Below are positions 12,418 through 63,500 of a stretch of DNA of 64,000 nucleotides, piece by piece. Below the pieces are notes generated by a model that did not search any database, was not told the DNA's origin, and saw only the letters and a list, made by a program, of their open reading frames with translations. The stretch's first letter is position 1. Every line of letters begins with the position of its first letter. The position numbers and the translations under genes were made by a program. The DNA is from Catajapyx aquilonaris (lineage: Eukaryota), in NCBI GenBank assembly GCA_000934665.2, contig KZ538054.1, positions 1 through 64,000 on the forward strand, given 5' to 3'.

Positions 12418-15400
12418 TCACATGATTTCACAGTAGTTGCAGATTGAGGACTTCTTGTCTTCCTGAGGGTGAGAATACAACTTTGCGGCTGTTGCTCGTG
12501 TCATCTCTGAGTCTGATTCCGAAATGTTTCCAACCCTTGCGGCATTTTCCTCAACCCATTGGTTCCAAAAAGATTCCTTCCACTCCTGAACAAAAGCAGT
12601 AACAATTTCTGAAGCCTGCTGATCTTCATGAAGCAGCTTCTTCTTACGCAGGAAACGAGCTAAGTGCTGCTGGATTGACAACGGAACATCACTCCAGTCA
12701 TTACCCAGATCACACTGAATAGCCTCAGTTGCTTGGTTTCGATCCTCCTCAAAAGAAACATGAGACTCCTGAACTTTGTTCACAACCACTGCCTTCTGCT
12801 CATCACTTGGGTCAGATATGGGGGCCCACAACTCCAACTGCCCTTCATCCATGGCCTCCAGGCTGTTGACCCTCGACTCGGATATGGGGCCAAGTGTTAA
12901 GCCTAGTTGCCTTTCCTGTAATCAATGACAACAATGTTGACAATATTATTTTGAACTCTTTCACAATATCTCTTAATCTGTGGTTGTGCCATCAAAACTG
13001 CCCCAATCCACCCAAGGCCCCATGTGGGATGGTTCCACAATTGAAGAATGTCATGATCCCAGTTAAATATGTTTTGCAAAAGAGAAAAAAAATAGTAAAG
13101 ACTCAATACTCTGCATTCCCCCATGGACCCCACTATGCTGGGCTGGTCTGACAATAGAAGGAGTGCTTACGAAGTCAGAAACGACATATCTGAATGATAC
13201 TCGCACATTAGGTAAATTGAGAGCCCATAGTATAAACACTCACTTTGGAATTGAGCCAAAGGGTCAGGCAATCCTTTCCCTATCCTGACTTGAACATTCC
13301 AAATCCAGATCTTCAGTTGTTTTTTTATAACTTTAAAAAGGCTGCTAAGTGCTCATACTTTCACCCAAAATATATGAATGCTTGATTAACCCATATGAGA
13401 GTTTCATTCAAATCTTTCATTCTAACTTGGTAAGTACAGTACTAACAGGGGCTAGGGCATGGATCTGTGTGCCAACAATGCACATACTTATGTGACTTTT
13501 AATTCACATCATTGAAATGATTGCCATGTATAGAGCTGATGTAGGCATTGTGGCCACTCATCAGCATAGTGTTCTCGTCATTCTATAATAATTACACTTA
13601 CCAAATAGTGCTTCGATTCATCATCAGCCACATTGCCCTTAATCCAATGCATCATGTTTATTTCCGAGAGATCCAGAGAACCAAACCACACTTTGTCAAC
13701 AACGTCGCAAGCGAGCCTCACCGACACCTCCATATCTGTAAAGTAATCCGCAGTGAAATTACAGTACTTGAGGGCTTCAAAACATACTTACGTTCATGAG
13801 GTAAATGCCGAAGATCACAGTTTGCAAGACAGAAGCCATGCACAAAGAAGTGGTAACTTTTAAATGGAAGGCATCGGTTTTCGACCATGACCTTCCCAGA
13901 ATCTCTCTTGAATTTGATTACTGTTCCTGCTCTGATCACAGGCTCACATTGTTCAAAAGATGTGGGAAATGCTTCCTCTTTCTCTCTTAGTTGAAGGAAC
14001 CGATTCCGCTAGTTATGGAAAATAACAAAAGCAATGTAATTTTCTATGTTACAGAAGGTGGACATCATTGTTATCAGAAATTCCTAAGCAAAATAAAGAC
14101 GATATAATCCAGGGCCAACAGAATCGGGGTGGTTCCTCAACATGCAGGAACTGTTGAAATAATCCCACTAAAGGGATATTTTTGGAAACTGCCTGTTTTA
14201 CTAAAGCTTACATCCATGTATCAGTATAAGTATGACAGTCTCTCCCATATCAAATTGGTACGTCTGAGCCCACTACATTTGAGTTGGTTAGAAGAATCAA
14301 AAGTGTGCCTGTTCAACCTCTCGGTAACCTCATTCAGGGTGCAAACAGGACAGGTGGGCATTTGCCATATTTCTGCCAATTGGAGCTGTAAGGTTAATTA
14401 TGGTGCACATGTTACAGTACGAGATCTTGGGCATGATGCGCATGGACACAGCTCCACTTTCACTGGGCATAACGATCACAATTGTACAGAAGGCAACTGC
14501 ATCCCTCATCACTCCATAGACATGCAGTCATGTTAGGTGGAAGCTATCGCCTCCAAATGTCATTTGTTGATGACCATTTAACAACCCAAAAAAATATCAA
14601 GAAAATGTATGTCAGTAAGTGAAATACTTTACCAGAATTTCAATCTCATTCACTGGGACATCTTTTAATTCCCTCAAATAACGGTCAAAATTTGAACTAG
14701 TATTGGCAGTCCTCTCAATTCCAATCCTTAACGACGTGCATTTTTCATCTTTCACGTCCACCAGAACCTCCTGCCCTGAAATAGAGAGAAATTTTTTAAA
14801 AATGACAGGGTGATGATTTTAAAACCAAAATTGCAATCTGAATGCATGAAAAAAATTTCAGATAACAATTTGTAGCAAGTACCTCGAGACAAATACGGTA
14901 TGAGGTTGTGGATTCCTATCAGTGGAACACCAAAGAGGGAAACGTTATCTGTGGTAAAAATTACATTCCAGGAGTTGTTTTTCTCCATCACAACTCCGCC
15001 ATGCTGGTTGACAAAACCAATAACTCCACAAGCATTGTTCATGTCCTCACACTTGCCACTGCTTGTATACAATTTCCTCATAGCAAGCTCCTAAAAAATT
15101 AAGCAAATTACACACTGCACAGTAGAAATAAAGTCACTACAATCCAACCTGGTTATTAATCACTTCCTGAGGAATACCACGCTTGTAACAAAAGTTCTTC
15201 ATGTCTTCAATCGATGTCAAAGAGGTGACATTTTTGTAGGACCCAACCCAGACACTTTTAATCTCGCCGCATTCCGAAAAAACGTGAACTTTTTGCCCTA
15301 AAAGGAGTGACATTTTCTTTCACACAATTTCCTTCCTTTGATGTGATAACATACCAACATGCAAGAAGTAGCGCAGATCCTGCTGCTCAACAGGAACAGC

Positions 15401-16825
15401 AAAAAATATGACATTGGCAGGTTCAACTCGCATGTCAACCCTGTCAACTGTAATAATTGCAAATGTCGGTTGCACATCTCCAACAACTGCTACATTGTTG
15501 CCTTCAGGTGCTGTCCTCTCTGCTGTACCCTTGTTCGAGGGGAGTGTATTGGTCTCATGGTGAAGGACGCCAGTTCTTCTCTTCTGAAAACACAAATGAG
15601 AATTTGTATCAACATTCCACACACACGTTATACCCAGTTCTTATATACTAGTAGCAATGGACAGCTTATCAGTTTCAAGGATGAAGCAAGATCTGAAGTA
15701 CCCCTTTTGATAATATCTGCCAGTAGCTCAACCCATTGTCCTACTATCCTATTTACCAAATATTGACAACTGCCTTTCCAGTGCCCCTTGCAAATTCTGC
15801 CCTATTTTTAAAATGTTGCATCTGCATGTAGCAGTAAGGTTCAGTTTGTAAGTGGGTTTCCTAGAAACTCAATCTTAGGCTGGTCGCAAATGGGGGAATT
15901 CGGGAGTAACTTATTGCCCGCACATTCAGCGCATGGGCCAGGGATCACCGCCTGTCTGGAGACAGGTTTCTGGCATGGGAAAAATTTATTGCTTCCAAGT
16001 TGGCCCCCCTCCAAGTCGTCCCGTTTGCACCTGGCCTTACTGTTGTGTGTGATGAACTGTTCTACAATGGCAATATTATAATCCACTTTGGAAAAATTTC
16101 ATATTGCCCATATGAAGGTTAAATCAGACTTCTCAGTGGTGAGAATATAAGTGGAAAGATCTGGTCTATCTGGTTATATTCACGATGTGTCTGTACAATT
16201 GCACGAATCTCGACAAAGTCCACGACAAAATAAATTTGACACTGTCTTAATTCTGTTAATGGGTGCAAAAAACGTTGCGGTTGCAAATTTTATTGCCTTA
16301 AAAAAGGTTAATTTTGCAGATAAGCAGGCCAAAAAAGTGCCACTAAAAACTGCACCCAGAAGTCAGACTTCAAGTCTCACATGTCATCGCCCCATACAGA
16401 TGAACCTATAGCTACGTGACAGTCAACCACTGCATGACACCGCAGATCATTACCAGCTCAGCCTCTGTGTCTGGATCGATGTTATGCTTCCTGCAATAGT
16501 ATTCAACCCTTGCATAGAGGTCTGCAGGCTTCTTGATGGGCTTTCCCAAGTGGGCCTCCCAGCCCTGATAGTTGTTCCCAAACATCCACACAAACTGCCC
16601 TGCAACGGACAACAATAAGGGCCATGTGACTCTCTGCGGGGAAGCAAGGTGATGAGAGGCGACCAATATGTTACCCTTTGCGTAGACCTTCCTGAGGTCG
16701 ATCCCTCCTAGGCAGATGCCAAAGAGGAAGCCCTCCTCAGGGGCCAGGTTGCAGTACATCTCCTTGTCCCTCTGGTCCTGGACCACCAGCTCATTGCGGG
16801 ACACCCTGGCGATGATGGCCTTCAT
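12418..16825 (-). CDS. Uncharacterised repeat-module protein, array copy A (~624 aa; 4 modules; ends ICNYCEIM)
   Basis: Nine GT-AG exons give an open frame of 1875 nt: 16825-16675, 16599-16454, 15583-15355, 15297-15149, 15090-14883, 14775-14633, 14008-13792, 13735-13602, 12915-12418. Paralogous to copies B-G. Confidence 0.8.
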
Positions 16826-19087
16826 CTCGACTGCAGGTCAGTGATGCATGGACGCAAAAGGCCGGGTGTCTCCAGTGGACTGGTCACGGGGGTGCTGGCT
16901 GCGGCGACGGACGGGCCTACTGGTCAAGGGTGCACTGCAGTTGACGGGGCGCGATGCAGCAGCAGGAGGAGTAGGAGGTGGGGACGAGGAGGGACGTCCC
17001 ATGCATAATGAGAAGGCGGTCCAAGAGTGGGAAACTGGTCTTTCAGGGGGGCTTTGAATGGAGGTGAACTCTGGGGAGAGGGGGCAGTAGACTCGATACC
17101 ATCGGGGCGGGGGGTTGCTCGGGTTTTTTTTTTTTCTCCCCCTCCCTTGGTGTGACATGCGCTCAATGACGGCTCGTCTGCTACTGCTCATGCCGCATTT
17201 TTTTTTTACGGGATGAACCCCATACAATGGTTGGTCCAATACAAAGGAAAAATCGGGTTGTAGTTCGTTGGGGCGGTAAAACGGGCAAGTTTCGCCTATC
17301 CTAGAAGCTAGAACACGGTGCAAAATTTTCGAGCAGCACTTGCAGACCATTGGTCAAGTGCGCCAGTTTTGAATCACTGGTCCACTGTCAGCCTCCTCTA
17401 ACTGTAGGAACACAATTTCGGAGAACACCTTAGAAAGGCTACATAACTACATAAGGGAACAAAAACACCAAGATGGGCGAACCATATTTGAAGCAAGTAG
17501 GCTACACATGTTACATTGATGCCCAGTCATTGACATGATTTCCTGAAGAATGATGAAAATACAGCCTGTTCATACTGCCTACTGTGACGAGGGACTTACC
17601 AGCCTGCAGTATCTGGAGCTCTAATTATGATCAACGTTGTGGATGTCCCTCAAGCTGCTGATGGAACCATTTCCGAGCATGCAGTAGCCTACAGGTGCGC
17701 GCCTGAAAGAGGTTGGCGGACGTGTGACACTGGTTCATAATGCAAAGGATGCAGTATTAACTGCACCCTCTTTTTTTATTGCGGAGAATGCCACCAGATC
17801 TCAAGGACTCCTGATGATCTATAAAGCCATGGTAGCTCTAGGCACATGTCTATAATGCATGTTGTGAAGATTCTCCCTAAATAGGCTACTCTTATTATTT
17901 TGTTCCCACGGAAGTCTTCGATGACGATCTAAAGATTACGTATACATATCTGAATAATTAATTAGTTTTTCAGTCATGTTTCCAATATGTAGACTACTGC
18001 ATGTTTTTAAAAACCTTATCAGAAGGATTCAAAATGATGTGGTGATGTGAAATCGCCTCCAGCAACCCCCGAACATCCGAAAATAATAATAACATTTCTG
18101 AAACTTGAACTGAGCACCGAAGATTTGCAATGTTCGATGACAGAATTGTCAAGTTGAGTCAGTAATGACTTTTGTGGCACAACTTCTTCCTATAAAAAAT
18201 AATTTAGAAAAAATTCAGGAGTGCCTAGTTTCCTGTTTCCTGTTATGTGAAATGAAACCTGGTCATGAGGTCATCATGTACAGTAGGCCTATATTTTCAT
18301 CCACTGATGTTCATGTGGATGGAAGGGAGTGAATCATTGTGGCCCTGGGCAAGAACGGAGAATGGAAATTCCTGATAAGAAATTATCCCAGCCAGGGCAA
18401 CATTTGTGTGTAGCACTAGCAAGACAACAGGCAGATGAAAATGATACAGCATTGGAAACAGGATCATGTCCCAATTAGCATCAGTCTCGCAGTTTTATTC
18501 GTGTTTGAATGTAATTAATTATATTTTCTTTAAATAAGTCTTTTGTTAATAATTTGAGTACATATCAGGACTCTTGTATGACATGAAGCTGACACATTTA
18601 TTTAAATGCTAGCATTTGACTTAACATTGGAAATCATTCAAATTATTCCACTTCTGGTTTCAAAAATACAAGAATGATTTTAAAACTGCAAAGTAGGACA
18701 CATGATGGTAGGGGCATTTTAACTTATGAATTAAAATACAGGTACTAAATTTATAGATTTAATCATCATTGATGGGTTCTATGATACGTGCACATTACCA
18801 GTAGGCTACTGTAACTGAGACATAATGCATGTAAATCTATTACTACATCTTTCTTTGGGGCAGCATATCGCACTGTACCTTGACCAAATATTGACTCCCA
18901 TGGCAAACTCAGTTCTTGCATACCGGTATCAACAGGTGCTTCCATTGGTGATGTCACCTATTTAATGAGGTGTATGCAAACTGATTGTGGTCAGGATGAG
19001 GAAAACCTAAAACCATATGTTTCCACTCCTTTTCAGTGGGGGTCTCATTACATTTATTGAGGAAGCTCTGAATAATTACAGATGTAA

Positions 19088-19383
19088 CCGAAGCAGGTTG
19101 GCATAGTGGATAAGGCGTCCGACTGCTAATCGGGAGGTCCTGGGTTCGAATCCCTGTGACGGCAACTCTAACCGTGGTTTTATGTGGTTTCCCACGGTTT
19201 CTCCAGGAGAATTCTGGAGTTGTTTCCTAATAAACAGGCCACAGCCGCCCCCTTCCTTTCCTATCCTCTCCCAAAAAGCAGTAAGTAAAAATGCAAGCAA
19301 AGAGTTCCAGACAAAACAAAAATTCCCCCCTAAAGAGCCGCCGGCTGATAACGGGGTATGAATTATTATTATTAATTATTATT
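19088..19383 (+). mobile_element. tRNA-derived SINE (tRNA-Ser(GCT)-like head)
   Basis: A-box TGGCATAGTGG, B-box GGTTCGAATCC and an (ATT)n tail. The 13-bp TSD ATTACAGATGTAA is at 19075-19087 and 19384-19396. Confidence 0.85.
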
Positions 19384-19497
19384 ATTACAGATGTAAATCA
19401 GTCACACAGTACAAATGATAACACATAAACCTACATTGAGCATGAATGGAAGGGATGCTTAAAAACATTTTGATTCCCACTGACAATAAAAATTCCA

Positions 19498-22400
19498 TTA
19501 CAGTCTGCATCTCATTCTGATGCCTACTAAGAGTGCCACAGCAGCACACATTACCAAAAGTGACCTGAACGAGTAGATGCCAGGTGGAGATGATTTGGGG
19601 CTATTCCCAGAAGTGTGGTCAGGAGAAGAAAGGTGGTGGCAAATTGGCACACTGGTGGTTTGTGTACCAGAATCAGCACTGAGTGCTACACTTTCAAGCT
19701 CTTCATTTCTGCTCCTGAATTCATTGAATTCTCTGAACCTGTGAACAAATTCACGAGACATTTGATGTGCCTCACTTGGTTGTTGTACAATCTCCTTGTA
19801 CAACAAAAAGAGGGCCAGGTTATCACTCAAAGCTGCTGCCAATGTGTTAGGAGTTAGTAGAACTCCTGATGCCCCTTCATCCATATTGCACTGAATCGCT
19901 TGACTGTGTGTGGCTGGATATGCCACAGCAGCTGCTTCAGTATTCTTTTGGCTTCCAACTGCATAACTTGTTTCAGATGGCACAGAAGTCTTGATGAGAG
20001 CCACTGGCTCTTCATTTGTCAAGTCAGCCAAGGGTGACCATAACTCTAATGCTTCACCAGATATTTCCTCAGGGAAATTGCTCTCTGGCAAGATGACCTC
20101 TTGGGATTCACACCTGGCGTTGGTCACTGGTGGAGTAAGATTCCAGTGCTCGATCTGCAATATCAAATTGTGACACTACAGGCAAGAAACAATCGCATGG
20201 AAGTTAATGTGCAGACAAAGCAAAACAATGGGTATTGCTGGCAACATACTGTATGTCTTTTTGCCCAAGACTGTACATCCAGCAATTCTACTGCAGACAG
20301 ATAATACAAAAATGGGAAAGACTTTTCTTCTGGTATCAATTTTATAAAGCCAAGTGTACATGTTCAGCTGTGTTAATCCCAACACGTCAGCGGAGAAAAG
20401 GGCAGGTTAGTACCAATTTATGTGGTATTTAGAGTATGTGCCATCTGTGACAAGTCATGAAACTCACCAGAAATTCTCTCTTCCTTTTGTTCACATTCTT
20501 CTTGATCCATTGGTGAAGCTTCTCACTGGACTTCTCCACTGAGCCAACCCACACCTTTTGCACAACACCATTGATTGTATGCACATTCACATCAAACTCT
20601 GCAACATGCACAAGAAATATGTATTTTTCATTGCTTGCTGGACAATTTTTATTTTTTTATTTTTTTATTTAGTTTACCCCGTGATGACCCTTATGGGTGC
20701 TATAGGGGGGTGGCATACCACCATCAGTTTTCTGTATATATTTTCTGCTTCATTCACCGGTGCAAGGAAACAGGGACAATGGGAAAGGACAGGGATTTTT
20801 GGGGAGGGAACATTGGTGCAAGTGCAATGTCGGTAAAGGGGTCATGTGCTGTTCCCCAGGAGGTTAGGTTGCCAGACACCTCCTTGGTGCAGGTCAGAGA
20901 CCCTCCTGACGCAGGTGAAAGGAAAGTTCCCCAGGCGGGGATCGAACCTGGGGCCTTTCAATCAGCAAGCCGAGACGTTACCATCTCGGCCATCTACACC
21001 TCCCCACTTGCTGGACAATGAATAGAGCACCAAAAAAAAGTGTGACACTGAATACTAACCTTTTGGTTCAATCTCATGTATCATTTCAAGGGGGTTAAAA
21101 ATTCATAAAATGGACATTACAGTGAATGTTTGAAAAGTTCATATATCAATATTTTACATCATATGCCTATCCATTCCCTCTTGGCTTAACTCACGATGCA
21201 AAATCAATGGGGAACTAGCCTTGGTCTGGGATTTGGAAATTTTGTTCATAACTAGCTAGCCCATGCCTGTAAACATACATTCCACCACTCTGTTGCATCA
21301 AAGTGACATTACAGGATAAATTACGGCACATTTAAAAGTGCCTTCAAAATTGGCGGGAAAAACGCCGCTGCCAATCGAAAGGGTACACTGAAATGCCTGG
21401 TTGACTGCGAGATATGAGGAATTTGACTTTGAATTAACCGCGGACACGAAGGAAAGCATTCGCAAGGCGGCTGTAGGCCATCGAGGTGGAGAAAAGGGGC
21501 CTTCATGTGCCGAATTCAGGTGACAGATGATTCCTGCCAGTTGGCACCACTGCCAGCCCATCAGCTGATTAAGCGGGGTGAAGTAAAAACGCGCCCCGGC
21601 CGCTATCTTGCTCACGGAATGGGCCGGTTGCTAACAACAGCGAAGCATTTTACAACATTGACGGGGCGTGTTCTACTTGCCCAAACCCAGAATAATTCGC
21701 TCACCCTGATATTTCCCAGTTGAGAATATGGAAATGACGAAATATAATCTAATATCGCGCATTTTAAAACCTCTGTGACCTAGGTCATATGTGCGCTGGA
21801 GGAGGCATTTTTGTGCCATCGTGTGGGCAAGATGCCACTCTATACGTAGGCGACCTTCATGACACCCTATTTATGTGCAATTAATTTATATTTCGTCATT
21901 TCCATATTCTCAACTGGGAAATATCAGGGTGAGCGAAATATTCTGGGTTTGGGCAAGTATAACACCATTTTTGCGTTCATTTCACTTCGCGTGACGTCAA
22001 CATTTTCTAGGGAAACAGTGACGTCACCATTTCCCTACATAAAAACCCCAATTACTCCGGAACCGAAACTGATATCTTAAAACGGAATACGCCAAAAAAA
22101 TCCAAAAATTATGGGCGAATTTATTACATAGTTTCCAAAATGAAGGCTAGTTCCCCATTACTACCGTTGGAAACCTCAAGTCCCAAAAGCTCACAGCAAC
22201 TCTTACTTTTTTTTCCAAGCATGTCCAGGTCAAGGTCTCCCATATGATGTCCATATAATGTGAATTGTTCCTTCTTGAATTCTAAAATTGCTCTTCCATC
22301 ACACAAGATTTGTCCCTTATCTTTCTCCAGCATCAACATAGTAGCAATTTGTATTCCTTGACGGTTTGCCTTGTCTTGACCATTCTCGCTATTAAAATGA

Positions 22401-23455
22401 AAGTGCCTTTGTTCCTAAAATGAGATAAAATGGAACCTTATGGAATGAAAAGTGCATACACACACACAATTGTCATACCAAAAGAGTCACATCCTGTTTT
22501 GGTACATTTCTCTCTCTGCAATAGTTTTTCAGACATTCAAGAATTCCTTCAGCTTGCACTGTCCTCTCTGTTGATATCCAAACTGCAGTGCAGTAGTTGC
22601 TCGTTGAATCAACATACACCAACTGCCCTGTTTGTAACACCACAGTTATTCTGGTGTAAGACTGACTTCTGAGTACGCCAAGATTATTTTCATTGTAACC
22701 TACCAATATTTACGAAGAGTGATATGTCAGAAACACCCTTCAGAGGAACAGCAAACAACTTGACATTCTCGGGTAGAAAAGTCAAGTTATAACTTTTATC
22801 TAATGTTTCAACTGCACCACCTCTCTTGGTAATACTTTGTACAATACACTTTACATTCTTTAAATCGGGGATTCCTGCCATGTCTTTCAGCTTTTCGTAA
22901 TTTTTGATCATTCGCTTTTCCTGCAATACAATATAGTGTAACTTCTCACATTCAATAAGCCCTGCATAGCATCCCTTGACTTACAAAATGTGATATGAGC
23001 ATTTCATCCACGTTCCTTCCTTCACAGAATTGTCTCATGTCAGCTACAAGTTTCAGAGATGAGACTGTCCTCGCAGTATCCAACCATAGGGTTTTAACCT
23101 TTCCATTCTTTATGTTTGCATACACCTTCGATCCTGAAAATATATTGGTAGTAAATTATTACGAAATCTGCTGCGATTCATGTAGCTTACCTGGTTCCAA
23201 TATGAGAGTCGGGCTCCACCCCAGAACATGCTGGCCAAACATAAAGATGCGCTTTGCTGAAAATCCCAAGTTGACTCCAAAGATATTGACAATTCCCGAC
23301 TTTCCAGTGATGCTAACAATTTTTCCCAGAGCACCATTGCAAGTTAACTTCACTTGTGATCCACTGTCACTTTTTGGATAGGATTCACATGACTGGGCAT
23401 CCAAATGGGGAGCATCATCATCACTTTGCAGTGATTCTGTTGTTGCTCTAAGTGC
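19498..23455 (-). CDS. Array copy B (modules 2-4 plus terminal exon with C-terminal TM helix); lacks its own exons 1-2
   Basis: Exons 23455-23191, 23133-22985, 22920-22704, 22627-22479, 22414-22207, 20598-20468 and 20154-19498 are in frame and end SLLVMCAAVALLVGIRMRCRL*. Most similar to copy C. Confidence 0.75.
20647..21006 (-). mobile_element. tRNA-derived SINE
   Basis: Minus-strand head with TGGCCGAGATGG and GGTTCGATCCC boxes, and an A-rich tail. The 13-bp TSD CTTGCTGGACAAT is at 20634-20646 and 21007-21019. Confidence 0.8.
21206..22159. mobile_element. MITE family 1 copy carrying a nested MITE
   Basis: TIRs AATGGGGAACTAGCCTT / AAGGCTAGTTCCCCATT. Collinear with 33389-34069. Confidence 0.85.
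21676..21957. mobile_element. TA-target (Tc1/mariner-type) MITE nested in MITE family 1
   Basis: ~70-bp TIRs starting CTTGCCCAAACCCAGAAT, with a TA duplication. The empty site GTTCTATAACACC is visible in the 33.4 kb copy. Confidence 0.88.
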
Positions 23456-23810
23456 CTGTGAGATAAGTGTCATGGTCTGTAGGAAGTGCTGTGCAGATAT
23501 ATTAGGCATTTACACACATTCCATTACAAAGCATTCCTATGCCATGAAAGACAGGAAAAATATGCCAGTGTCTACATGATCTACACACAGGCCAAGGGGG
23601 CTGATGGCAGCCATCACTCCGGTATGCCCATATGCTATTTAATTATCCATGTGTACACAAATAAATTAATAAAATACAGCTGATTTTCCTCGGAGTCCAA
23701 TTTTCAGCGTGGTCTTTCTCCCCATGGTATTGCAATGCAGGACTCAAACTTGGTACAGTATTTCACACTAGGTCGTGAGTTGAAAAAATTAATAGATTAA
23801 TAGATTAATA

Positions 23811-24559
23811 CAGGGTGTTCCAGAGTTGACGACTCACTCTTTGAAACGCAATTACTTTCGAACGGAACAACATATTTATTTAAAGTACGTACCAAAACAT
23901 CAAGGGAGGGTGCGAAAATCTTTCACGTAGGTGGCAGTACTAAGAAATGCTCAGGTCTTGCAACAAAAATGCCAGAAGCAAGACTGTCGTTAGAGAAACG
24001 TGTCCAGTGTGTTCGACTGTATTCAGTGAAAAAAAATGTTACAGAAGTGTGCCGTCAAATGGCAATCCTTTTCGGTGGACTGGCTCCTACCCGAAAAACT
24101 GTTGTGAGGATAAACCAACGGTTCGATGAAACTGTAAGTGTCTTGGATCAAATGAAACCTGGCAAAGGGAGAACAGTTGTGAATGCAGATAACAAACAGC
24201 GCATCCGAGATGCACTGGAAAGTTCTCCAGCAAAAGCAAAATCGGTCCGACGCCTGTGGGGTTATCTGAAGGAAGAGGTTTACCACCATCGAATGGGCTC
24301 CCTGGAGCATCTGCGTGACTTAATCACACAGGCGTTCAACGCGATCCCTGTTGACTTCTGTCGGAAGGTGTGCGACAACGTCGCCTTGCGATTGCGGGCC
24401 TGCATCGACATGGAAGGGGGGGTGGTTGACCATACCATGGAGAACAGGTCTTAAGTTAGCATTTCCTTGATGTTTTGGTACGTATTTTAAATAAATATGT
24501 TATTCCGTTCGAAAGTAATTGCGTTTCAAAGAGTGAGTCGTCAACTCTGGAACACCCTG
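23811..24559 (+). mobile_element. Non-autonomous Tc1/mariner element with internally deleted transposase
   Basis: ~95-bp near-perfect TIRs starting CAGGGTGTTCCAGAGTTG, with TA TSD. ORF 23969-24454 joins the N-terminal HTH directly to the C-terminal LWGYLKEEVY...RLRACIDMEGG region; the catalytic core is absent. Confidence 0.9.
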
Positions 24560-24970
24560 TAGATCCCTTAATTTTTTCAACAAAATCAGAGAGAATTGGA
24601 CGCCAACTTCTTCCAAGTTAGGTTGGAGATGACTGTGTGGCATTAGTACACTATGAGTCATGAGGAAGGGAGAAGCAAAAATGTAGTGGGGATGTGACAG
24701 TGTTTTGGTGAACTAGTGTTCTCAGTTACTGTAAACATTTTCATGTTGGTGATGTCAGAAACTTGCTGATGAATAAGGACTGCCTAGCTGATTGCGCCCA
24801 AGAAAGTCTCTCTTTGAGTTATCACTGATATTATAATTTATTTTGATTGTCTCTTCCATCTGTGTCTCCTCAACAACAGATTCCTGTACTAGACCTACGT
24901 TGATAAATCTGTACCTTCTGATTAATTCATGATTTTCTGCAGCCACGTCACTGCTTAATATCAGTTAATA

Positions 24971-25540: not shown

Positions 25541-25572
25541 ATATTACAAATTCACCAGGTATGGACATTATC

Positions 25573-30518: not shown

Positions 30519-30643
30519 TTTTATATTTTTTTTTGGGTTGTTACCCTGCTTATCCAGGAACCCAAGCATTTTTTAAGGGGTTGATTTAATTTTTAGGTAA
30601 AGTTTGATAAGATATACTGCAATGTAAATTCAGCACAACACTA

Positions 30644-31043: not shown

Positions 31044-31181
31044 TACACTTGTTCATGCCATTATGGGAGGATGGGGTAAAAAAAATTGATCGATGCAAAT
31101 TTGTGGCATCAATTGATTCCACTGAGATTCTGTGACAGTCCTGCCAGAAAAGTGCTCTGAGAAGCCTTGTTTTACTATTAT

Positions 31182-48460: not shown

Positions 48461-48469
48461 GAGTTTGAA

Positions 48470-50140: not shown

Positions 50141-51897
50141 TCACCATGGTGACCCTAACGGAGGTGCTTCTGGGCAGCTGGGAGCCTCAGGAAAAATCTC
50201 CATGCATATGTTCATGACATCGTGAACTAATCTGTCAGCAAATTTATGGACAGTGCGATCCAGGCTTGACTTACTCTTCATGCAATCGAACCCACCAAAT
50301 TCACATATCCGGTAGTGGTGCAATATGGCAGTGGTTTGATGCACATTTAATTTCTGTTTCCCTGTGAGGATAAAGAAATATTCAGAGCAGGATGAATGAC
50401 ATAGTATACCTATCTATAAGTACGGTATTGCATTAATAAATTGCATTAAAATGATATGAGGGAGGTCATGAGAGAATGTTTCAAAAAAATCAAGCTTGTC
50501 ACAAACGCCACTTGCTTTGTCAAACACTTAGGACGTGAATATTACCTTTAACAAAGTCCCATATGCTGTGACTTCCAGCCTCTATTACTAGATCGGGTCG
50601 CACGATGTACTTGCTCCGAATTCCAAACATATGCAGAGACTTTACCCGCTGAGTCTTGAATAGTGTGAGTAAATAAGGGGTAGCCGTTACATGCTTGTCT
50701 TGGAAGAATCCAATAGCTCTTGTGTCATTCGGCCAGTACAAATAGAAGAAGGTGTTTCGGAAGATGAACGCCCCATGCAGATGAGGAGCCTTATCCAAGT
50801 CCTTCATCATGGAGTAGTAGTTATCGTGCCGACGAGGAACTATAAACTCATCCAAGTCCACCACAACAGTGTAGGTGAAACGGTGCCTGGTCCGGAAGAT
50901 GCAGTCATTCAAGGCAGCAAAAATTCCTTCTGTTCGGATTTCTTTTTGAGAACGAACTGGAAGAGCCCAAGGAAGGACAGTCAACATGTTTGATTTTTGG
51001 TAGTGCTGCAGTACCCTGAAACGACCAACGCCAAACAGTTACTTGCTCCAGATCTAATAACATTACTAGCTTGTAAAACAATTATAATTTGAAAACTTGT
51101 AATAAATATATTTATATGACCCGTGCAAGAAATGAATGATGCGAACCTTTCGACGTGGGGCCCAATGGTGTGGTTGTAGAACAGGAAGTGCTGAACTCCC
51201 ATGATCTTGTAGAACTCTACGAACTCGACCAGCCAGACTGCTCTGTTGTAAGCATTGTGAAGAGGCTTGACGCATAGGGCGAACTCTCCCTGATGCCCGT
51301 CCTGGTGCGAATACTGCACTGCCACTGATTCCGGGGTTTTGGCAGAAAAAGAAAAGAACCGCCCATCCTTATACTTTGATTTTGCCATCAGACCCGCACG
51401 CAGTGGCCTGAAGGACTGTGTCATCGGGCAGTCAAATCGATAGGCTGCGTAAGGCATCCCCCAGTGCTCTCTAAATGCTCTCACCGTGGGAGAAATTGTC
51501 ATCACCTATAGGTCAAAGTGCTACTATCAGCAGGCCCTAAACAGTCAATTCAGCTTGCAAAATGAATAGTGACCAGAACTTACCAGGGATCTGTTTTGCA
51601 CAATGCATTGCACCTTCTGCTGGATAGCGTTTCCAAACGGTGCCACCCCAATTATCCTGACCATGGGATTGTCCTTCTGTTCTTCGTCATAATAAGCCGA
51701 GAAGAAAAACACTTTGCCTGCTGATGTAGTGATTTCTCTCCAAGTGTCAACGGACCTCAGGTTCTTGACGGTGTATTTCCATTTCCCCAGGGAGCCGAGT
51801 AATACCCCTGAGGCTGATTTCAACTCACCTTTCTGGTGCACCTTTAAATGGTTTCCAACGATGAGTTTCCATTATTATTATTATTATTATTATTATT

Positions 51898-51985
<88 letters not shown>

Positions 51986-52278: not shown

Positions 52279-53728
52279 GAATGGGTGATATCCACACAGG
52301 CTTCTACAGTAGCCTATATATCAAACCTGAAACGGGAAGTAAGCGTACAGGCCTACTCTTTATATTATACACCATAAAGGCATCATATTGAAGCATTCAC
52401 TGACATGACACATAAGTCATCTCGTCCTACAGGTGTGTTAACATAATACTTGGTATTTAATACAATAATACACCACAAACTAATGGTACGTGATGCTCGT
52501 CAACTCACAAGTCAGTGTCGATATTATAGACTGCTAATAGGTGTATACTTCAACTTTGGAATGACATCATACACACTCGATTTCCCCAATTAGAGGAGTT
52601 TCCTGTATGTCGCCAACTCCAACTCACAATCCTGCCCGCAGTTTCCAAAACTTGGCGCATAATATACTCTGGAGCCTTTTTTTGGCGGGGAAATGTCCGT
52701 TAATGATACCATCTTACGCAAAATCTTAAAGACGATTTCTCCGGGTGTCTACACCGTACCTCTAGGCACCGTACCTTTGCTCCTCTGCTGCAGAGGAATC
52801 GAAACTGTTCTAATCTGTGGTTCTAATTCTCAGACTCACCGACAACAACACTGCTGATGGTTGTCATGACAACTCAGGAGGACGGAAATTGCAGGGTGCA
52901 TGCACTTACTGCACGGTACGCACAATAAGTTATGCAGCATATTCTTGGAGCGACAATATACAACAAGGCTTTGACAGGCGTGTGATCCTTGGTGTGATCA
53001 ATGTGCAACATTACTGTAATAAGGAATTACCGGGTAATCATGCTTGGATTTTTGTCATTTGATGGACGAGTTTTTTCTGTGCAGTCCTTCCTCAACTTTG
53101 CCATCCTAAGTGGTAGGGTCCTAGAGGAGAATTGGAACATGGGTCAAATCGAGGTCCAACATTACATTTTACTTGGGCTCTGGCAATCTTTGTACTTGCT
53201 CTCGTGATTGCTCTTCTTGCGAACAAAAAACAATGCAGTACACTATTATGCAGGTTTTTAAAACAAGTGTTTATTGGAAATATTCAATTAACTTTAACAC
53301 TGAAGAATGATTACGATTAGATAAGACTGGTGAATCAAAGTCGAAGTACAAACTTTAACCCAATATTTAAGACACTTTCATGCGAGATGAATGGAGTAAG
53401 AGCCAGCAAGAGTTATTTTTTCACCGAGAAAAATGACAATAATTCTTTCCTGAAATCATCAAACTTCGTGTTTTCTCCAGTTTTCTGCCGAAATAGATCC
53501 TGCCATAGGCTATACAGTACATATAGTCACTGCATGCTAAAATAACTTATTGCTAATGAAATGCAAGTTATAATATTAAGTTTTGATTTATGATAACGTT
53601 CGATCCGTATACTCTATATCACCATAACTGAAAACAATATTATGAAGTTTAAGCAAATAATAAAAATACTGGTTAAATGAGCAAAGTTGACTTCGGGTCA
53701 TATTTCGTGAATTAAATTCTGTTCAGCT

Positions 53729-56700
53729 TCAGTCTCCCAAGTAAAATTCCATGGTCATTATTCGCCCCGTAGACACAGTTTGACACCCGACATCCAGGGA
53801 ATCAGCGCTTCGAATGACACGATATGCGTAGACGCCACTTCCAGCAACAGTCGACATGTCCTGTGAGATTATTGCACTGTCCAACTCTGAAGGAACAGTC
53901 GTGTCCTCCGTTTCCGATTCAATTTGCCCGTTTGCACATCTCATTTCAGCACCCTCCATGTCGTCCAAATTGTGCAAGACCTGATGCGCAGTTTGCTGTG
54001 CAGTTACCTCCACAGTCTGCCGAAGAATGTTAATTTCTCGATCAATGTCGGATTCTGCTGGAGAGATGTGTTTGTAAGCACTGGATACGCCACTCTGACT
54101 CTCTGACACATCAGGACTACTGGCTGAATCGTGGTTTGATTCGTTGGTATCTCTCATTCTGCTAGTAATTTCCCATTTGCTGAAGGCTCCATTAACAAAT
54201 TCTCGAGAAAAGTTAGTTGCTAGATCTTCACCGTGCTGACATTCCCAGAATGCAACCAGTCCATGTTGAATCAAGAAATTAGCTAACTGTTCCTGGATAT
54301 GAATCTGCATATCTGCCCATTCTCCCGATAAAGTCTGTTCTGAAGCAGCCACGACGGGGTTTCCTGGTGGTGATGTGTGTGTTTCAACATGTGGTTGATT
54401 GCATACCGGTGACTTTTCTACCACTGTCACCACTGAGGAGTCGTCCAATGGTGTCCAATCATCCGAAATGTCTGCGATGTCATCTTTCCCTGGAGCTGAC
54501 GTGTAAGATGATCGCTTCTTTATCTCAACAGAGTGAGAAATATTACTTTCATCCTGAGAAACAATAACAAGATCGAGCGTCAATAACAACCGAGAGCATC
54601 AATATCGATGCTACACTGCATAATTATGTCAATTTTTACTTTAAAATACTTACCCCTTCCTGTTTGTTGATCTTCGTAAAATCTTCATCCAATAAAGTAT
54701 TATTACCGGTAACTTCTGAATTTTTATTGATATTTCGGGTGTCAGATACACACTGGACTGTTACGTGAGTCTCACTCACTTGTAAATCAGGTGTAGTTGT
54801 GTGGAGATTACCCAGATCGTGATGATGTTTTATCTGCGGGTAACAACCATATTTTAGAATATAGCATATACGTATACAAAAGCAGCAGGACGATTTCGTG
54901 CCAGAATGAAATGGCATACCGTACATGAGATGTTAAATCTTCTATGCAGGTGTTAAGTTTTGCAGAATCTTCATTCGAAGGTGAATTTTCTTCAGGGGTT
55001 TCAGAGAGACTCTTAGTGTCAGATGGGTCGTGGACAATCGTTGCATTCTCATTTACTTGTATAGGAGACTTTGATGGAATGAGATTGCACAGGAGATTGC
55101 GACTCCGGACCGTGAGCTTTAAAGAATTTTTAAAAGTAATGTGCATTAAATGAAAGTACAACATTTGATGATAACATGAATAGGCTGCATGGTATAAATG
55201 CCAGACACCTACCCATTCTTTGTTGATCATAGGAGCTTCGTCTCTCGCTTCGTCTAGTGATACAATTTTCCCGTCTTCTGAGGTCTCAGGAAAACATGTG
55301 GCGTTATCAGACACAGTATGGACAGCCTCTGCACCCTCCTTACTTTCCTTAGCAGCTGTAGATATGTGGAGATGGTACATGTCCTGATGACGTTTCATCT
55401 AAAGAAACAAAACATTACAATGTTTATTTTAATATAATGAAAATCAATCATTACAAGCAAGGTATACCAGAATGTCAATGTCATTCCTGGGTACGTTTCT
55501 TTTCCAGCAATATCGCTTCAGCTCTTCTGCTTTGTTTTTATTTTCCACGTTCCTCTCACTGCCTATCCATATTCTTTTGGGTTGGCCTTCCCCGACATCC
55601 ACGTACACGCTCTGGCCTGCAAAATTTAAAATATTTAAGCGTTTTATTGCTCTGAGAACCAAAACGCAAGGGTAATTTTGAGAAAAACAATAAGAACTAT
55701 CCCGCTGCTGAACCTTATGGATGTAGGCACGTGAGAATGCTTGTAAGTACCTGTATCACAATAAAAGGCAAACTCAGTTAACAATTATAATTTTTGTGTG
55801 AAAATGTACCTTCTCTTAAAATTTTGGTGAGGCATGTAATTCCCTGAAGTGGTACTGCAAATGCATACACATCAGCAGTCCTGAAGGTAATGGACCAGGT
55901 GTTGTGATGATCTTTTACGACTCCTCCACACTGATTGACCATTGTTATTTTTCCTAGTTGATTTTGAATATCCAGGACCCCCTTTTGGCCAGTTTTCTTT
56001 AGAAGCATTTCCTCCATTACGATTTCCTGCAGGTTCATATTCAGAATTCTTATTTTGTACTGCAACACACTTTACTGGGTACAAACTTTTTTTTTTAAAT
56101 ACATGAGGGCAAGCTGTTAATAAGCGTTAACAAGATAAGAGTGACACAATGAAAGCTGTCTATAGAGGAATAGCTGCATTCCGCAATATTTTCAATCTTG
56201 AAAAGTTTCCATGACATGATGTATACGAGGGCGGTACCAAAATGATTTACAATTTGTTTTTTTGCCATAGACACAACACCCATGCAGGTGGAAAACCACA
56301 CCTTTCCAGGATATTTTTAAAAGTTACTTCGAGACAAGCTTTGAGAATACATACCAGAGAATCAATCAATGAGCCTTCCATCCCCATACCATCTGCTTTT
56401 CGTTTTACCATCATTATATCCTGCTTAGATGAGATCAGAGACCTTTTAGAACCCACCCACATTTGCTTAACCATACCATCTTGGACACACATGTATACTG
56501 TCTGGCCTGAAATAGAGAGCAGGTAATATAGTATGTATATAGACATATAACGTGACATTTTTCTCTTCACTGTACCTAATGTACTGTACAGAGTGGCTCA
56601 TGAGTCGTCAAAAAAGTTGATCTCTTGCCTCTTTCGCTAATAAAATAATGCAGATTATTGGTTAAGCCTTAAGGTATCTTATGAACCATCCTGGACAGTT

Positions 56701-59449
56701 CTGGAGGCTCATGTAAAAACCATGTATCTCTGATTTGGCCATTTTGAGATATTGCACCTCAAAGTTCGTGATCTGCCATTAGTTCTTGCATAAATCATAC
56801 TTGAAAAACTTGAATAACTTTGCAGGAAAACAAGTTAGAGAGACGTGGTTTGTACCACAGTGGATAGAGCTTGAAAAGACCCGTCCAATTGTGGCCTACA
56901 AGTAAAAACCCAGTATCTTGAGTTACATGGTTTTTACATGAGGCTCCAGAGTTACACTTCTGCTAATTTTATACGTAGTAGTTGCAGCATGCAGCTTTTA
57001 CTGGAACCATCTTACACTTACCAATTCTGAGGACTTCTGATAATGATGAAGCAAGAAACTGCAGTTTTATACCAAAAATTAGGAGGTTATCCTGTGTAAA
57101 GGGAAGGCTTTTATCATGTTGTTTGACAACGACAATTCCGGATGTATCATTGATGGTCTTAATTATTCCGTCTTGACCATCGCCGTCAATAGAAAGTTGA
57201 TGGGAAGGTGTTTTTACACTGGGAATTGAAAAATTCGCTTCATGGGACGCCATTCCAATCTGAGGGAAAATTAAGTAAAGAATAACTGCATGAATTACAT
57301 TGAAACACTCCCTTGCCACATTATGTAAATTTAGAAAATATGTTGCCAAAATAATTTCGCATTAAAAATACGTAATAAGCAAGGCCCACCTTTACGATAT
57401 ATTCATATGTAAAATTAATGGAACACATAGCAACATTATTTTTTGTCTTTTGACTAGTGCACCTCCTTACCTGAATGTGGTCCACTCCGGACAACTTTAT
57501 TTATTTGTTGTTGTTTTTTATTTACCCCTACCGACCCGATTCAATAACTAAAGGAGATAAAGGGGATCGCAAAGACGCGTATGGTATTGTGCAGCGCAGG
57601 ATAATTTCCAAAATACCTTGTGCCTGCTTGTGCCACTATGCATCACGTGACAAATTCTACGAGTCTTCCCGAGCTCTTTTCGCCTTCAATTGCGTCGGTG
57701 TGTTGTCCGGCGTGGGTCCGCTTTCAGATATGAGGTGGGTGTGATATGTCATATGCCGAGAAATGAAGAATAATCTACCTACCATAAGTCTTTTGGTTTC
57801 ATTTGTCATATCATATCTCTCCTGGCAATATATTTCTATATTTCTCTTTAGATGGTTAGGATTTCTTTTGATGGATCCAAAATGAGCTTCATATTCATCA
57901 CCGTGCAGTATGATTTTCATGTATTGACCTGTTAGAAGTAACACTTATTAGTTGTAGCGAAGCAGAGCAAGACATTAGACATTATAGACATTAGTATACC
58001 GTATACAGATAAATTGATGTGACATTGCATAAAATGAAAGTCTGTAGCTGTTAATTATTCAGGGTTACTGAATACGACTGTATGATACAATGCACTGTGG
58101 AAAATGTATGTATCAAAATTTATATGCAAAAAGGTCGCTTGGGTCGAAATAATATAGGATGTTCCATTATTATCAGCCTTGAGATTAGTTTCCATGCTGT
58201 TTAAAATCCTCTTCGCATCCAAACATATTTACACGCACACGTACACTTACTCACACGCTGTGAAGTATTTACTACATAACTCTCAATCTCTCATAATAGG
58301 CTACATCAAACCTTTATCAGTAACGTACGTATACATTGTCAGTAATTTACATTTGTAATAATTACCACGAATTGGCAAAAACACTTATTCACATCCAATC
58401 ACACAGCACACACGTGTCCACACGCTGTATTTACATAACTCGCACGAACAATTATTTACTCACTGCTCTCTTGTACAGTACTGTACTGTACCGAGCGCCG
58501 TGCCGTCTTCATGCCGTCAGATAAGAGCTACTGTATCAATTTTTCTATCCCCAAATAGGAGTGGAGAATTGCCACGAGCGGGGAATTACCATCAGGAGAA
58601 TGAATGCGTAGGAGTATTTAATATACGGTCACTCCATTGGGTCACTCTATACCCTCGCTTGGTAAAAGATGTACTGTAGTACATCTCATAAAGCGCATGC
58701 CGGTATAGGTGTAGTCGAGGTCTACCAGTTTTTAGAAATGCATGATCTGGTGGCTATACCGGGATACCTGTATAAGGCGAGGTTTTCACATAAGTTACAT
58801 TACCGTATCATTTCCGAACTTTACATTTGCCTAAGAATCGAAATTCACGTAAAAACTATCGAAAAGGCACATTTACCAAATAGGGTACCCTTACCATAAT
58901 TATATTGTTTTCAATTGGAGTGTCTGGAAATAATATCTATTTAATGTTTAAACAGTATGTTGGAGCAGGGGCCAGGGGGTTCCCCTGTCAAAGCAGTCTG
59001 ACGATGGGATTAGTGACACGCTCTAGCCTGCACTTTTTATATGCACTGTACCGGCAAAACAGAACTTGCATATTCTCACAGCCTGTTGTACTGTACACTC
59101 CTCGCCCATTTTCATTGTAACATTATTTTAGTAAGGTACCAGAAGCATTCCAAAAAAAAGGGGGGGGGGGGGCAAGGATCAAAATTACGGAAATCTACCT
59201 CGGTTACTGCGGCATGGTCTGGAATAACCTTGTTAATATCTGACTAAGTTGCATTTTACCTATGATCCAATAGATAAGATTATACATACCCACAAGAAAT
59301 ATCTTCATCAGATCAATGTTTTCCATTCGCATTCCATAGAGAAAAACCAGTCGTCTTGGAAAACGCCTTGTTACCTTGCTGCCCTGTGACCTTTCCTGTG
59401 ACCTCACTTCCAATCTATCACTAAATAAACCGACAATTTCACCTCTCAT
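53729..59449 (-). CDS. Array copy F (~814 aa; 3 modules plus acidic Ser/Thr-rich linker; ends VGCQTVSTGRIMTMEFYLGD)
   Basis: Exons 59449-59290, 57928-57783, 57259-57022, 56506-56355, 56026-55810, 55616-55468, 55398-55213, 55116-54925, 54833-54654 and 54553-53729 are in frame. The linker exons are less certain. Confidence 0.72.
56700..56950. repeat. Inverted-repeat element in a copy F intron
   Basis: TCTGGAGGCTCATGTAAAAACCATGTA / TACATGGTTTTTACATGAGGCTCCAGA. Confidence 0.5.
58670..59245. mobile_element. MITE homologous to 24971-25540, in copy F intron 1
   Basis: Extended similarity to the reverse complement of ~25030-25540. Confidence 0.7.
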
Positions 59450-60564: not shown

Positions 60565-63500
60565 TTATTCGCCAATGTATAAGCTGAGGTGCATGATCTG
60601 CCCAGTTGAAATAGTTTGGCAGCCCACCTCCTTGGCAATTTGATGCGTGCGACTGATTTTGCACTCGTTGGAAGCATCACAGTACTCTGCAGAAGTGCTG
60701 GAGGTCAGACTAGAAAAAGAATCATCCCTATTGCAATCAACCTGTTGTTCTTCTGGAAGAAGTACATGATCCCCATCAGCCTGGCGGAGCGCAAGCTTCT
60801 CTGCATGACACGCAGTTCTTCCAAGGCTGTCCCGGTGATGTACTTCACTTTCAAGTACGCATGGAGATGCTACACAAAGACACCTAGAAAAATGAGTCCA
60901 TAACGCCACAAAAACATCAGGAGCATAGGATGAATAATAATAATGAATGTGGATTTCAGGACATACTCATATGATTCTTGATCTGCTTCCTCCTCCTCCT
61001 CCTCATTCTCGTCTTCTTCTTGTTCATACTCCTCCACCTCTGCTACCAGTGCCAACTCCGGCATCTCTTCTCTTCTGACCACATTCCACTTCTTACTTGC
61101 AAACCGAGCCCATTCCCTCACAAACTTATCTGCCATTTGGGCTGCCAACTCGCACTGACTGAAGTTCAGCAAACCTGAGGTGATCAGAGTGTCGGTCAGC
61201 TGCAGGTGCAAGTTGCTCTTGAGGTCAGTCCAAGCTGAAGAATATTTCTCTCCAGTGGTACGTGGTGAAACTAGAACTGTAGTTTCCACCTCAGAAACAA
61301 CAGATTCGGCATTTTCCTCTTCCTCAAGTTCATCAATTGGTGCCCAGTAATCCATGGCAGCCTCGGAGATCTCTTCTGGAGTCGAAGGTGGCACTGATGT
61401 CTTTTGCGATAAGCTTTGCTCATTGTCAAAGCTCCAGTGCCTCAACTGGAATTAAGTTAAATGTGGAATTCTGTAGTCTTAAAATGAAGAATAACCAAGT
61501 CAGGGCCCATTACAAAATACCAGAGAGTGTTTTGTGTCCAAGTCCTCCACATTTTCATTGATCCAGGACACCAGGTTGGGCCTTGACTTCTTAAGAGAGC
61601 CAACCCATACCTTGTTGACTTTTCCCGCATCTGTTAGGCTAAACATGACTGCCAGACCTGGTTACAAAATTCAAAGTAAATGAGCTGCGCCGGTGAAATT
61701 GAATTTATCAATTTACCAACAGTGATGAACCGACGAAGATCTAACGACGAAAGCTGGTAACCATATATGACCATCTGGCTGCTGGCAAACGTGAAATGCA
61801 ATGAATTGCAGGTAAATATCCCCTCATGCCTGTCCACTTTTGTGATAGTAGCCTCTGCCTTAGCCAGTGGCACAGAATCTAATATGGAATGATGATCAGT
61901 TCCCTTCAGTGTGACTGCCTGTGAATCATTCAGTAGAGTTTAAGTCGTCTCAAAAACGTATTATTTCACTGAATCAAGCTTACAAGCATGTGTAATATTC
62001 CTTGCGGAACTTTCCTCTCTTGGCAGTAGCTGGAAAGGGCCGAAAAGATATCTGCTTCATCAATGCTCCTCTGCTTTCCAATCCACACACACTCGCACAC
62101 TCCAGAGGACACTTTCACATGCGTGGCTTGCCCTGTAATCATTGCAAGGCTGTACAACTCATGTAGATTGAGTTAAAGTATTACACAGTATTATTAGTGG
62201 CATTTGTGTGTTTCCATGGATTCAGCCAACCGCGGATGAAAAATATTGGCAGAAAAGAAAACCTGGCCTTTTTGACTTGACATGCCCACATCTGCCTCCA
62301 ATAACCTCTCACCTTTGCGTAATAAAAGCCGGAGATCCTCGATGCCTTTCAGTGGAATGGCAAACAGTCGGACGGTTTCAGTACTAAAACTCAGGTTCCA
62401 AGAGTAGTTTTTTCCTTTGACATATCCTCCTCTCTTCCCAACACAGAGGATGGTTGCTTCTTCATTGCTCAGATTCAAGGAAGTGTCCGGACCACGGAGG
62501 AAGTAGTATAACTTCCACATTTGTACTTCCTATATGAATGCAGCAGAATATTATTTTATCTGTACTACTATCACTACTACATATCACGTTGATTTGGTCT
62601 AATTACGCTGATATTATTGTCGAGTGTCATATCTTTGTACATTTCCAATAAAATAATAAAAATTTCTCATATTATAATCTTCACTTCTTAATAAATTATT
62701 GAAATCAGATCCTCACCAGGTAGTTCAAGGCATCTTCAGGCACTGATTGGTAGGTGGATCTCATTTCTTCAATAATCTTTCGAGAGACCACTGACCGATA
62801 GCTTCCAACCCAAACTCCAGTCAACTTTTTCTTTTCTATGCCGGCATACACCTTCAATCCTATGCAGAAAATTTCAAATTAATTGCCCTTTATTATCGAG
62901 AGATTGGTATATATACGTAATAAAAGTAGCTCCTGCCGGTACATGTATGGAGTATATTAATCATATTAATTCACAAAAACATGTCTTATATTTTATCACG
63001 TACCGCATTTAAGGAAGAGTCGCATATCAAGTGGTCCAAGTGGAATGGAGTAGATGTAGACCTGCTTGGAGGAAAAGGTCAGGGCAGATCCTCCAATGAT
63101 CTGGACAGTGCCAGTCTTCTTGCTGACAGAGGTCAGCTTACCCGTTTCTCTGCCACATTCAGCGCCATCCTTGGAGTTACCAGAAATCATTGCTGCTTTC
63201 TTTTCCAACAACAAAGACACTGCGGCTGTAATACAGTTTGGGCTCGAGTTTTCTATACGTTCAGGCACACTGAAGAGGCTGGAACGTTCTTTCTGGAGAA
63301 ATAAAGTCAAGTGTAGGCGTGAATAAGTGATCTTTATATTAGCTGGTCATTGAGGCATTTACTCATGCTAATATTGTATGCAGCGAATATGAAATACTGC
63401 AAGTTGTCTATGTGCATAGGAGAAAAGTGTGATTATATTATACGCCTTTATCCAGTAGTAACTTACCAGAGCGTCCATGACGTGGTCCTTCGCATCATAT

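Follow-up and report, generated by a model that had tools for sequence, protein, structure and literature searches.

The window analysed here, the whole stretch of 64,000 nucleotides at positions 1 to 64,000 of contig KZ538054.1 from Catajapyx aquilonaris, carries an array of seven related units (A-G), all on the minus strand. We propose that its products are scaffolds built of several OB folds, that they most likely bind single-stranded nucleic acid (RNA), and that the last exon of each gene would serve as an exchangeable address module; as the overall best explanation, we give this a probability of roughly 0.4. The older form, seen in F, G and katydid relatives, would be soluble with an Egalitarian-type end, where LC8 should dimerise the protein and may couple it to transport by dynein. 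A four-repeat ancestor would have undergone whole-gene duplications, after which the lineage of B and D may have kept an LC8-like site while its frame extended into a tail anchor. This anchor would then have drifted to different predicted membranes, those of mitochondria or peroxisomes for B and of the endoplasmic reticulum (ER) for D. In A the LC8 site would have been lost and a farnesylation box acquired, together with a Cys that may be palmitoylated. The outcome would be one scaffold in several compartments.

Self-comparison of the window shows the seven related units; these and their tail features are as follows (aa, amino acids; TM, transmembrane; KD, Kyte-Doolittle hydropathy).

12418-16825, minus strand: gene A, nine exons, 624 aa, with four repeats of a predicted OB-type barrel plus helices, a linker, a hairpin (12556-12678) and a CaaX end.
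12421-12441, minus strand: tail of A, with CEIM at 12421-12432, the stop at 12418 and a second Cys three residues upstream.
19498-23455, minus strand: unit B, seven exons, with repeats 2-4, a hairpin (19711-19833) and a tail, without repeat 1.
19654-19674, minus strand: LC8-type motif of B, DSGTQTT, directly after the hairpin.
19501-19575, minus strand: predicted tail anchor of B, a 19-residue TM stretch (19519-19575, KD 1.95) followed by RMRCRL (six residues, +3).
25573-28802, minus strand: unit C, nine exons, four repeats; the last exon ends before the hairpin, with a phase-0 donor after 25627.
36446-39319, minus strand: gene D, nine exons, 703 aa, with four repeats, a hairpin (36671-36796), DASSQT (36605-36622) and a predicted tail anchor.
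36449-36526, minus strand: predicted tail anchor of D, a 19-residue TM stretch (36470-36526, KD 2.39) followed by KYISHTH (seven residues, +1).
41820-43386, minus strand: unit E, a 3' fragment with a frameshifted repeat-4 exon, a stop at the hairpin end and a foldback element upstream.
53729-59449, minus strand: gene F, about 750 aa, with three clear repeats, low-complexity exons, a hairpin (54173-54301) and a terminal LC8-type motif (53732-53794).
60565-63936, minus strand: in-window part of gene G, with a hairpin (61086-61214) and a terminal LC8-type motif (60568-60630).

The gene structures and tails can be read directly from the DNA. The C-terminal ends of A, B, D, F and G all lie in frame at the positions listed, and each is the end of the last exon in an open multi-exon model. 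Intron phases are identical across all paralogs. Every repeat is split over two exons, one with a phase-1 end and the other with a phase-0 end, and the general model has four repeats followed by one last exon (two in G). C, G and B (without its first repeat) come to 595, 1137 and 591 aa. Pairwise identity among the paralogs is 22-38%, with 51% for B and C and 34% for B and D. In the common plan, repeats with a predicted OB-type barrel and two helices lead into a helical hairpin, and the tail behind it varies; this confirms the proposal of a first-pass annotation of this DNA that the paralogs share a body and differ in their C-terminal tails. An eighth member of about 600 aa, H, lies at C134:87.6-91.4 kb, 23 kb past the window, and ends straight after the hairpin with no tail. 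The sequence of unit E marks it as a pseudogene (or an assembly error).

Some of the models have further features. The intron that splits every repeat of A-G is missing from two of the three repeats of H. G starts at G000:C134:65640 and encodes five repeats and an N-terminal region with weak S1-like leads; its upstream part has a GC-AG intron at G000:C134:64470, with which the model is open. D contains an intron of 57 bases (38304-38360) that is in frame and stop-free, and its retention would add 19 residues inside repeat 2.

F and G end in the motif Q-T-x-S-T-G-x-I-M-x3-[FL]-Y. As a background set we took the 1481 stop-terminated frames of at least 45 residues on the contig, family ends included, and QTxSTGx[IV] occurs at the end of two of them, namely F and G. 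A very similar end occurs on Egalitarian (Egl), an RNA adaptor for dynein. Egalitarian of this genome was found through its winged-helix domains at G000:C1684, and its last-exon frame carries QTLSTGDIVITRVYF. QTLSTGDIV..VYF in this protein compares with QTVSTGRIM..FYL in F and QTISTGQIM..LYI in G, the common terminal pattern being QT-x-STG-x-I-x4-[VFL]-Y. Unlike Egl, the array has no WH_Egal or 3'-5' exonuclease domain, and true Egl lies on another contig; judged by sequence, the array proteins are not Egl homologs and share only the linear motif.

The accessible parts of the literature describe a single Dlc-binding motif at the C-terminal end of Egl, with a dimerising role (10.1101/2025.08.03.668247; 10.1101/2021.05.12.443861; 10.1101/550277). 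The Egl_2pt mutant changes two Ser, S965 and S969 (10.1101/550277). In our own mapping their spacing fits positions -1 and +3 around the Gln, and F, G and B all retain the +3 Ser. LC8 sites are built around a TQT anchor, which is present in 49 of 91 verified sites, while 42 deviate (PMC7919418; 10.1101/2023.09.15.557927). F and G have a CQT core with Egl-like flanks, B has the canonical TQT, and D has SQT followed by CP in a stretch of low predicted local distance difference test (pLDDT) score. The F/G end thus appears to be an Egalitarian-type LC8 site; the first-pass description of a shared soluble motif was right that it is shared, and its bare label is corrected here. The idea of an RNA-localisation adaptor gains from this motif. 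The F/G pattern also ends five of 38 relatives recovered by a profile search (four from the katydid Anabrus, one unnamed; an internal QTxSTG match in P0036 was left out of this count), and for this reason we read the LC8-type end as the older, probably ancestral, state.

Own-genome searches covered the 285.6 Mb assembly with queries of limited sensitivity and found no family member off contig C134 save a copy of the F end. This copy, G000:C13079:1-1620, is 96% identical to the 3' end of F (window 53556-55138), has an open frame and keeps the terminal motif; its sequence is that of a haplotig or recent duplicate. A frame at G000:C1570:93034-93123 has an F/G-end-like motif (47% over 30 residues, E 0.055), with no family repeat within about 21 kb around it.

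The B and D tails were described in the first-pass annotation as hydrophobic ends with a short polar or basic finish, and they are indeed present. The most hydrophobic 19-mer of each protein sits at its C-terminus (KD 1.95 in B and 2.39 in D; best elsewhere 1.34 and 0.87), so both classify as tail-anchored by hydropathy only. The terminal helix of D is predicted at a pLDDT of about 55-65. When the last 62 residues of B and D are aligned, four of 2000 shuffles score as well, and 25 of 2000 do so for the part before the TM stretch. The tails still align in proteins that share just 34% identity, so the hydrophobic end has persisted while the proteins diverged over a long time. Aligned in this way, the two anchors read as one homologous derived tail of single origin. 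The tail opens with an LC8-like site in both (DSGTQTTS in B, DASSQT in D), and the letters of the B site are those that start the terminal motif of relative P0009. This suggests that the anchor may be an extension of the old end and not a replacement. A terminal stretch with KD>=1.9 occurs in 29 of the 1481 frame ends. Both the paired B/D anchor and the F/G motif are beyond what chance would give.

The predicted organelles differ between the two anchors. In mammalian proteins, mean tail charge is +2.5 for shared, +1.1 for mitochondrial, +0.2 for ER and +6 for peroxisomal tails, and high TM hydrophobicity with low charge favours the ER (PMC5450235, as far as its accessible text goes). By this heuristic B (1.95, +3) looks mitochondrial or peroxisomal. 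D, with a grand average of hydropathy (GRAVY) of 2.39 and a charge of +1, leans to the ER and does not fit the mitochondrial or peroxisomal type. The tail-anchor type assigned to both in the first-pass annotation would fit B, and D departs from it.

A ends in a CaaX-like box with a second Cys upstream, as previously noted. The box has its Cys fourth from the true C-terminus, an aliphatic a2 and an allowed X (M/S/Q/A/C). The last 20 residues carry a net charge of -1 with no polybasic stretch, and the upstream Cys is a possible palmitoylation site. Stable membrane binding of a farnesylated end without a basic run would need a palmitoylated upstream Cys. In published yeast screens CEIM has a Ydj1 enrichment of 1.80 (CASQ 1.61, CVIM 1.05) and a Ras heat-map score of 16.2 (CVIM 19.4, CASQ 4.9; PMC10320760 supplement), and it is predicted to be prenylated by three of four methods, and cleaved (PMC9231725 supplement). 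CEIM thus behaves as a farnesyltransferase substrate in a yeast reporter context, which is not that of the A protein itself. By analogy, farnesylation of A is likely if the end is exposed. C-x-[IVL]-[MSQAC] occurs in six of the 1481 frame ends, and the chance is about 0.1-0.4% per end and 1-3% over eight ends, so the single CaaX is less secure against chance than the F/G motif or the B/D anchor. A candidate origin of the CaaX as a truncated TM tail is unsupported (878 and 1514 of 2000 shuffles align as well as the A tail does with B and D).

Transcription of the A and B ends is observed directly. One public run, X1, from one study was placed as contigs on 11400-31300 (A, B and C); its kind is not on record, and we take it as RNA because its contigs skip introns. 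They skip all eight predicted introns of A, and among the joints listed they support at least two of six in B and at least two of eight in C. One contig (11945-12914) runs from exon 7 of A through CEIM and the stop into the 3' untranslated region with no differences. Splicing before the end, which would have removed the tail, is thereby excluded for A. Another contig (19343-20135) spans the B anchor and stop unspliced, also with no differences, and largely removes the same concern for B, although it holds no joint to the upstream exons.

B is probably not free-standing and would form the 3' half of a fused C-B gene. The phase-0 donor of the last C exon scores 5.2, inside the range of true donors (median 9.3 over 49 modelled donors), and B opens with a phase-0 acceptor. 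The spliced C contig stops at 25626, one base beyond the donor; this base is a G, and the B exon likewise begins with G. The joined frame is open over 1170 aa and takes in seven repeats, the hairpin and the anchor. A short way upstream of the B acceptor there are in-frame ATGs, and the C-B joint is not among the listed joints. Behind C, the trace of a decayed tail is borderline at a z of 3.7, a value that one shuffle also reached. A short repeated element lies in this interval.

24971-25545, no strand assigned: short repeated element located between C and B, bounded by terminal inverted repeats (40 of the 510 candidates were scored, and all 40 matched).

This element would sit inside the putative C-B intron. 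We rejected the idea that a transposon cut the last C exon, as the element begins at 25545, behind the donor and stop and 80 bases further on.

The hairpin is found in all members except C. In a model of the last D exon it spans residues 107-155 (pLDDT about 70-94), follows a disordered linker and precedes disorder and the terminal helix. A fold search with the hairpin gave only generic two-helix matches (Z<=5.8), and it could be a dimerisation or docking domain. Most members have an xQC[DN] stretch ahead of it, which may resemble non-canonical LC8 sites.

The predicted fold of the repeat is an OB-type barrel. The model, based on 38 exon pieces aligned on a naturally intronless H repeat, has five main strands that form the barrel and two helices (pLDDT 78, predicted template modelling score 0.55). 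Among 48,161 chains the top rows of a structure search are OB-type barrels. EF-P is matched with a Z of 6.5 (root mean square deviation 2.5, 58 residues aligned) and the Unr cold-shock domains with 5.0-6.0, and ligase, S1 and Lin28 domains are also among the best; the repeat falls in the OB-fold class on predicted structure only, with middling Z. Chained five-strand barrels also make up Unr/CSDE1 and other multi-OB (cold-shock, S1) proteins. The array differs from these in having no sequence match, two helices after each barrel and no RNP motifs. Unr is not known to have a membrane tail. Pfam searches of 29 open reading frames (ORFs) in the window and 10 upstream found no relevant family, a PDB sequence search gave two weak unrelated rows only, and the ESM Atlas held no usable match for the repeat and only sub-0.9 S1-like leads for the N-terminal exon of G. 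On the modelled fold, RNA binding by the repeats is plausible.

The profile search of 1.84 billion representatives returned the 38 relatives (best E 9e-12, none below 1e-30), among which the doubtful match P0033 was kept. Of 20 looked up, 13 are named, all from Pancrustacea (Anabrus, Ladona, several decapods, Lepeophtheirus), and all are uncharacterised or hypothetical save one automatic 'myb-like' label on a cluster member. No Pfam domain exceeds the cut-off in the 29 relatives scanned; below it are an S1 match (E 0.0024) in one of the 29 and weak S1 and OB nucleic-acid-binding matches in P0028 and P0012. By an iterated local profile, each relative has 1 to 15 repeats. The multi-repeat proteins XP_067006050, XP_067005291 and KAG8235051 are true homologs, and it is their last unit that the array repeat matches (E 9e-12 to 8e-4). 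In most such homologs one close copy of the unit follows a series of more distant units, up to 15 in number, whereas the array has multiplied this last unit four to five times. None of the 38 ends in a TM stretch (KD>=1.9) or a Cxxx box. With no close relative (none at E<=1e-30), the searched libraries hold no ortholog in which tail conservation could be followed.

Word-indexed protein searches with the D repeat and the N-terminal exon of G gave no match, and the C-terminal half of P0028 retrieved only P0028 itself. Full-text literature searches, in which subscription journals are largely uncovered, found no paper on the repeat family. The family is undescribed, and no Pfam model covers the repeat. 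Four Anabrus relatives (P0001, P0004, P0012 and P0028) are on one 353 Mb record, three of them with neighbouring accessions, and may have arisen by a separate tandem expansion.

A tree of 39 repeats, which leaves out row G0, groups them by position and not by gene (repeat 1 of A, C and D; repeat 2 of A-D; repeat 4 of A-D and G; all starred). We infer from this grouping that the genes arose by whole-gene duplications of a four-repeat ancestor.

Several findings weigh against address-bearing RNA scaffolds. On the side of the body, the Z scores of 5-6.5 are middling and fold likeness shows no function, and Foldseek against PDB and viral libraries returned nothing at E<=0.001. The RNP1 and RNP2 aromatic motifs of cold-shock domains, with the RNP1-type strand, are absent from the repeat alignment, and most repeats are near neutral, not basic. 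The hairpin profile matched none of the 38 relatives, and the gene tree is weak beyond B and C. The missing strand and the near-neutral charge would also suit functional tails on barrels that are protein-binding modules, in which case the paralogs would be compartment-specific protein adaptors. There is no Pfam S1 or cold-shock match in any window exon, and EF-P and phage baseplate OB barrels score level with cold-shock domains. We nevertheless hold this rather unlikely: Unr, Lin28, CRHSP-24 and S1 domains fill much of the structure list, the matches of P0028 and P0012 below the cut-off are to nucleic-acid-binding domains, and arrays of up to 15 barrels may recall polymer-binding proteins.

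The low identity among the paralogs, the birth-and-death character of an array with a pseudogene, and the second expansion suggested by the katydid record are what a fast-evolving defence family would show, with RNA sensors spread across virus-replication membranes. There is precedent in OAS1 p46 and ZAP-L, where a C-terminal CaaX brings an RNA-binding body to membranes; these differ from the array in that each arises by splicing of a single gene and has a known enzyme or effector domain (PMC8357416; PMC8568172, in their accessible parts). The array proteins have no effector or enzyme domain and their divergence may only reflect age, and we consider a defence role improbable. The GIMAP GTPase cluster is an analogy only. 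There, too, the paralogs are clustered, some of them being held on different organelles by a C-terminal TM anchor while others are soluble, and a pseudogene is present. The cluster differs in its GTPase body, its occurrence in vertebrate immune cells and, within the accessible text of the source, the lack of a CaaX or LC8 class (PMC8201404).

As for the tails, F and G have Cys and not Thr or Ser before the Gln, four of the five relatives with the terminal motif are one species, and the motif is also present on unrelated Egalitarian, which makes convergence possible. A strong internal donor in D at 36914 (score 8.5) could skip the D tail, and the organelle rules come from mammalian cells. The CaaX is seen once and without an ortholog. 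FlexPepBind scored CEIM 0 (PMC9231725 supplement), and its screen counts are low, at 29 and 45 reads (PMC10320760). Most CXXX sequences pass the Ydj1 screen. Position a1 is tolerant, though Glu there is one of the few negative Ras patterns in the accessible text (PMC10320760).

Such points leave room for ends that are mostly neutral by-products of last-exon decay, with an accidental CaaX in A and anchors that brought no functional change. C, E and H end abruptly, as expected of a labile last exon, among random frame ends about 0.4% resemble a CaaX box and 2% a TM stretch, and no relative has the A, B or D tail types. We find this doubtful, as the B/D tail is still aligned, open and hydrophobic at 34% overall identity, and as A is intact and fully spliced, with the best a2 and X residues in its box and the second Cys. 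A role of B and D as mitochondrial scaffolds of piRNA biogenesis like Gasz and Daedalus is very improbable: despite the C-terminal TM stretch with a basic end in B and the dimerisation of the piRNA factor Panoramix by LC8 (PMC7919418, accessible part), D leans to the ER, the SAM, ankyrin and coiled-coil bodies of Gasz and Daedalus share no domain with the array and only the C-terminal TM scaffold is common to both (10.1101/608018, as far as its accessible text goes), and the likeness to piRNA factors drawn in the first-pass annotation finds no support in the window and upstream ORFs, which yielded neither a SAM or ankyrin domain nor any other domain of a piRNA factor.

The surroundings of the array encode unrelated proteins. 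To its left are ORFs with FAD-oxidoreductase, nucleotidyl-transferase and GFO/IDH/MocA domains. A glycosyltransferase family 92 gene (window 50520-51871, minus strand) lies inside the array between E and F. To the right is a DEAH splicing helicase, by eye DHX38/PRP16, beyond which H is located. Window 23804-24561, between C and B, holds an element with terminal inverted repeats and a helix-turn-helix ORF (DUF4817, below cut-off), which looks Tc1/mariner-like by eye. Other foldback or repeated elements are found at window 43432-44024, 21206-22160 with 33389-34070, 44654-45015 with 46812-47201, and 58659-59216; one of these lies immediately upstream of unit E, another within the first intron of F.

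A more elaborate version of the address-module explanation, which we think quite unlikely, would treat the last exons as plug-ins that give LC8/dynein-linked cytosolic (F, G), mitochondrial or peroxisomal (C-B), ER (D), farnesylated (A) and untagged (H) forms. These could mix through the hairpin and the LC8 sites, and RNA cargo carried by soluble paralogs would then be captured by those on membranes. In that case the array would be a gene-family-encoded grid for RNA delivery or surveillance across organelles.

Retargeting of paralogs through their tails is already known and limits the surprise, and the repeat family itself is undescribed. The OB-type fold and the Egalitarian-type LC8 site would be its first functional handles. 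Within 50 kb, a single body carries C-terminal signals of three unrelated kinds, which makes the array a compact natural experiment.

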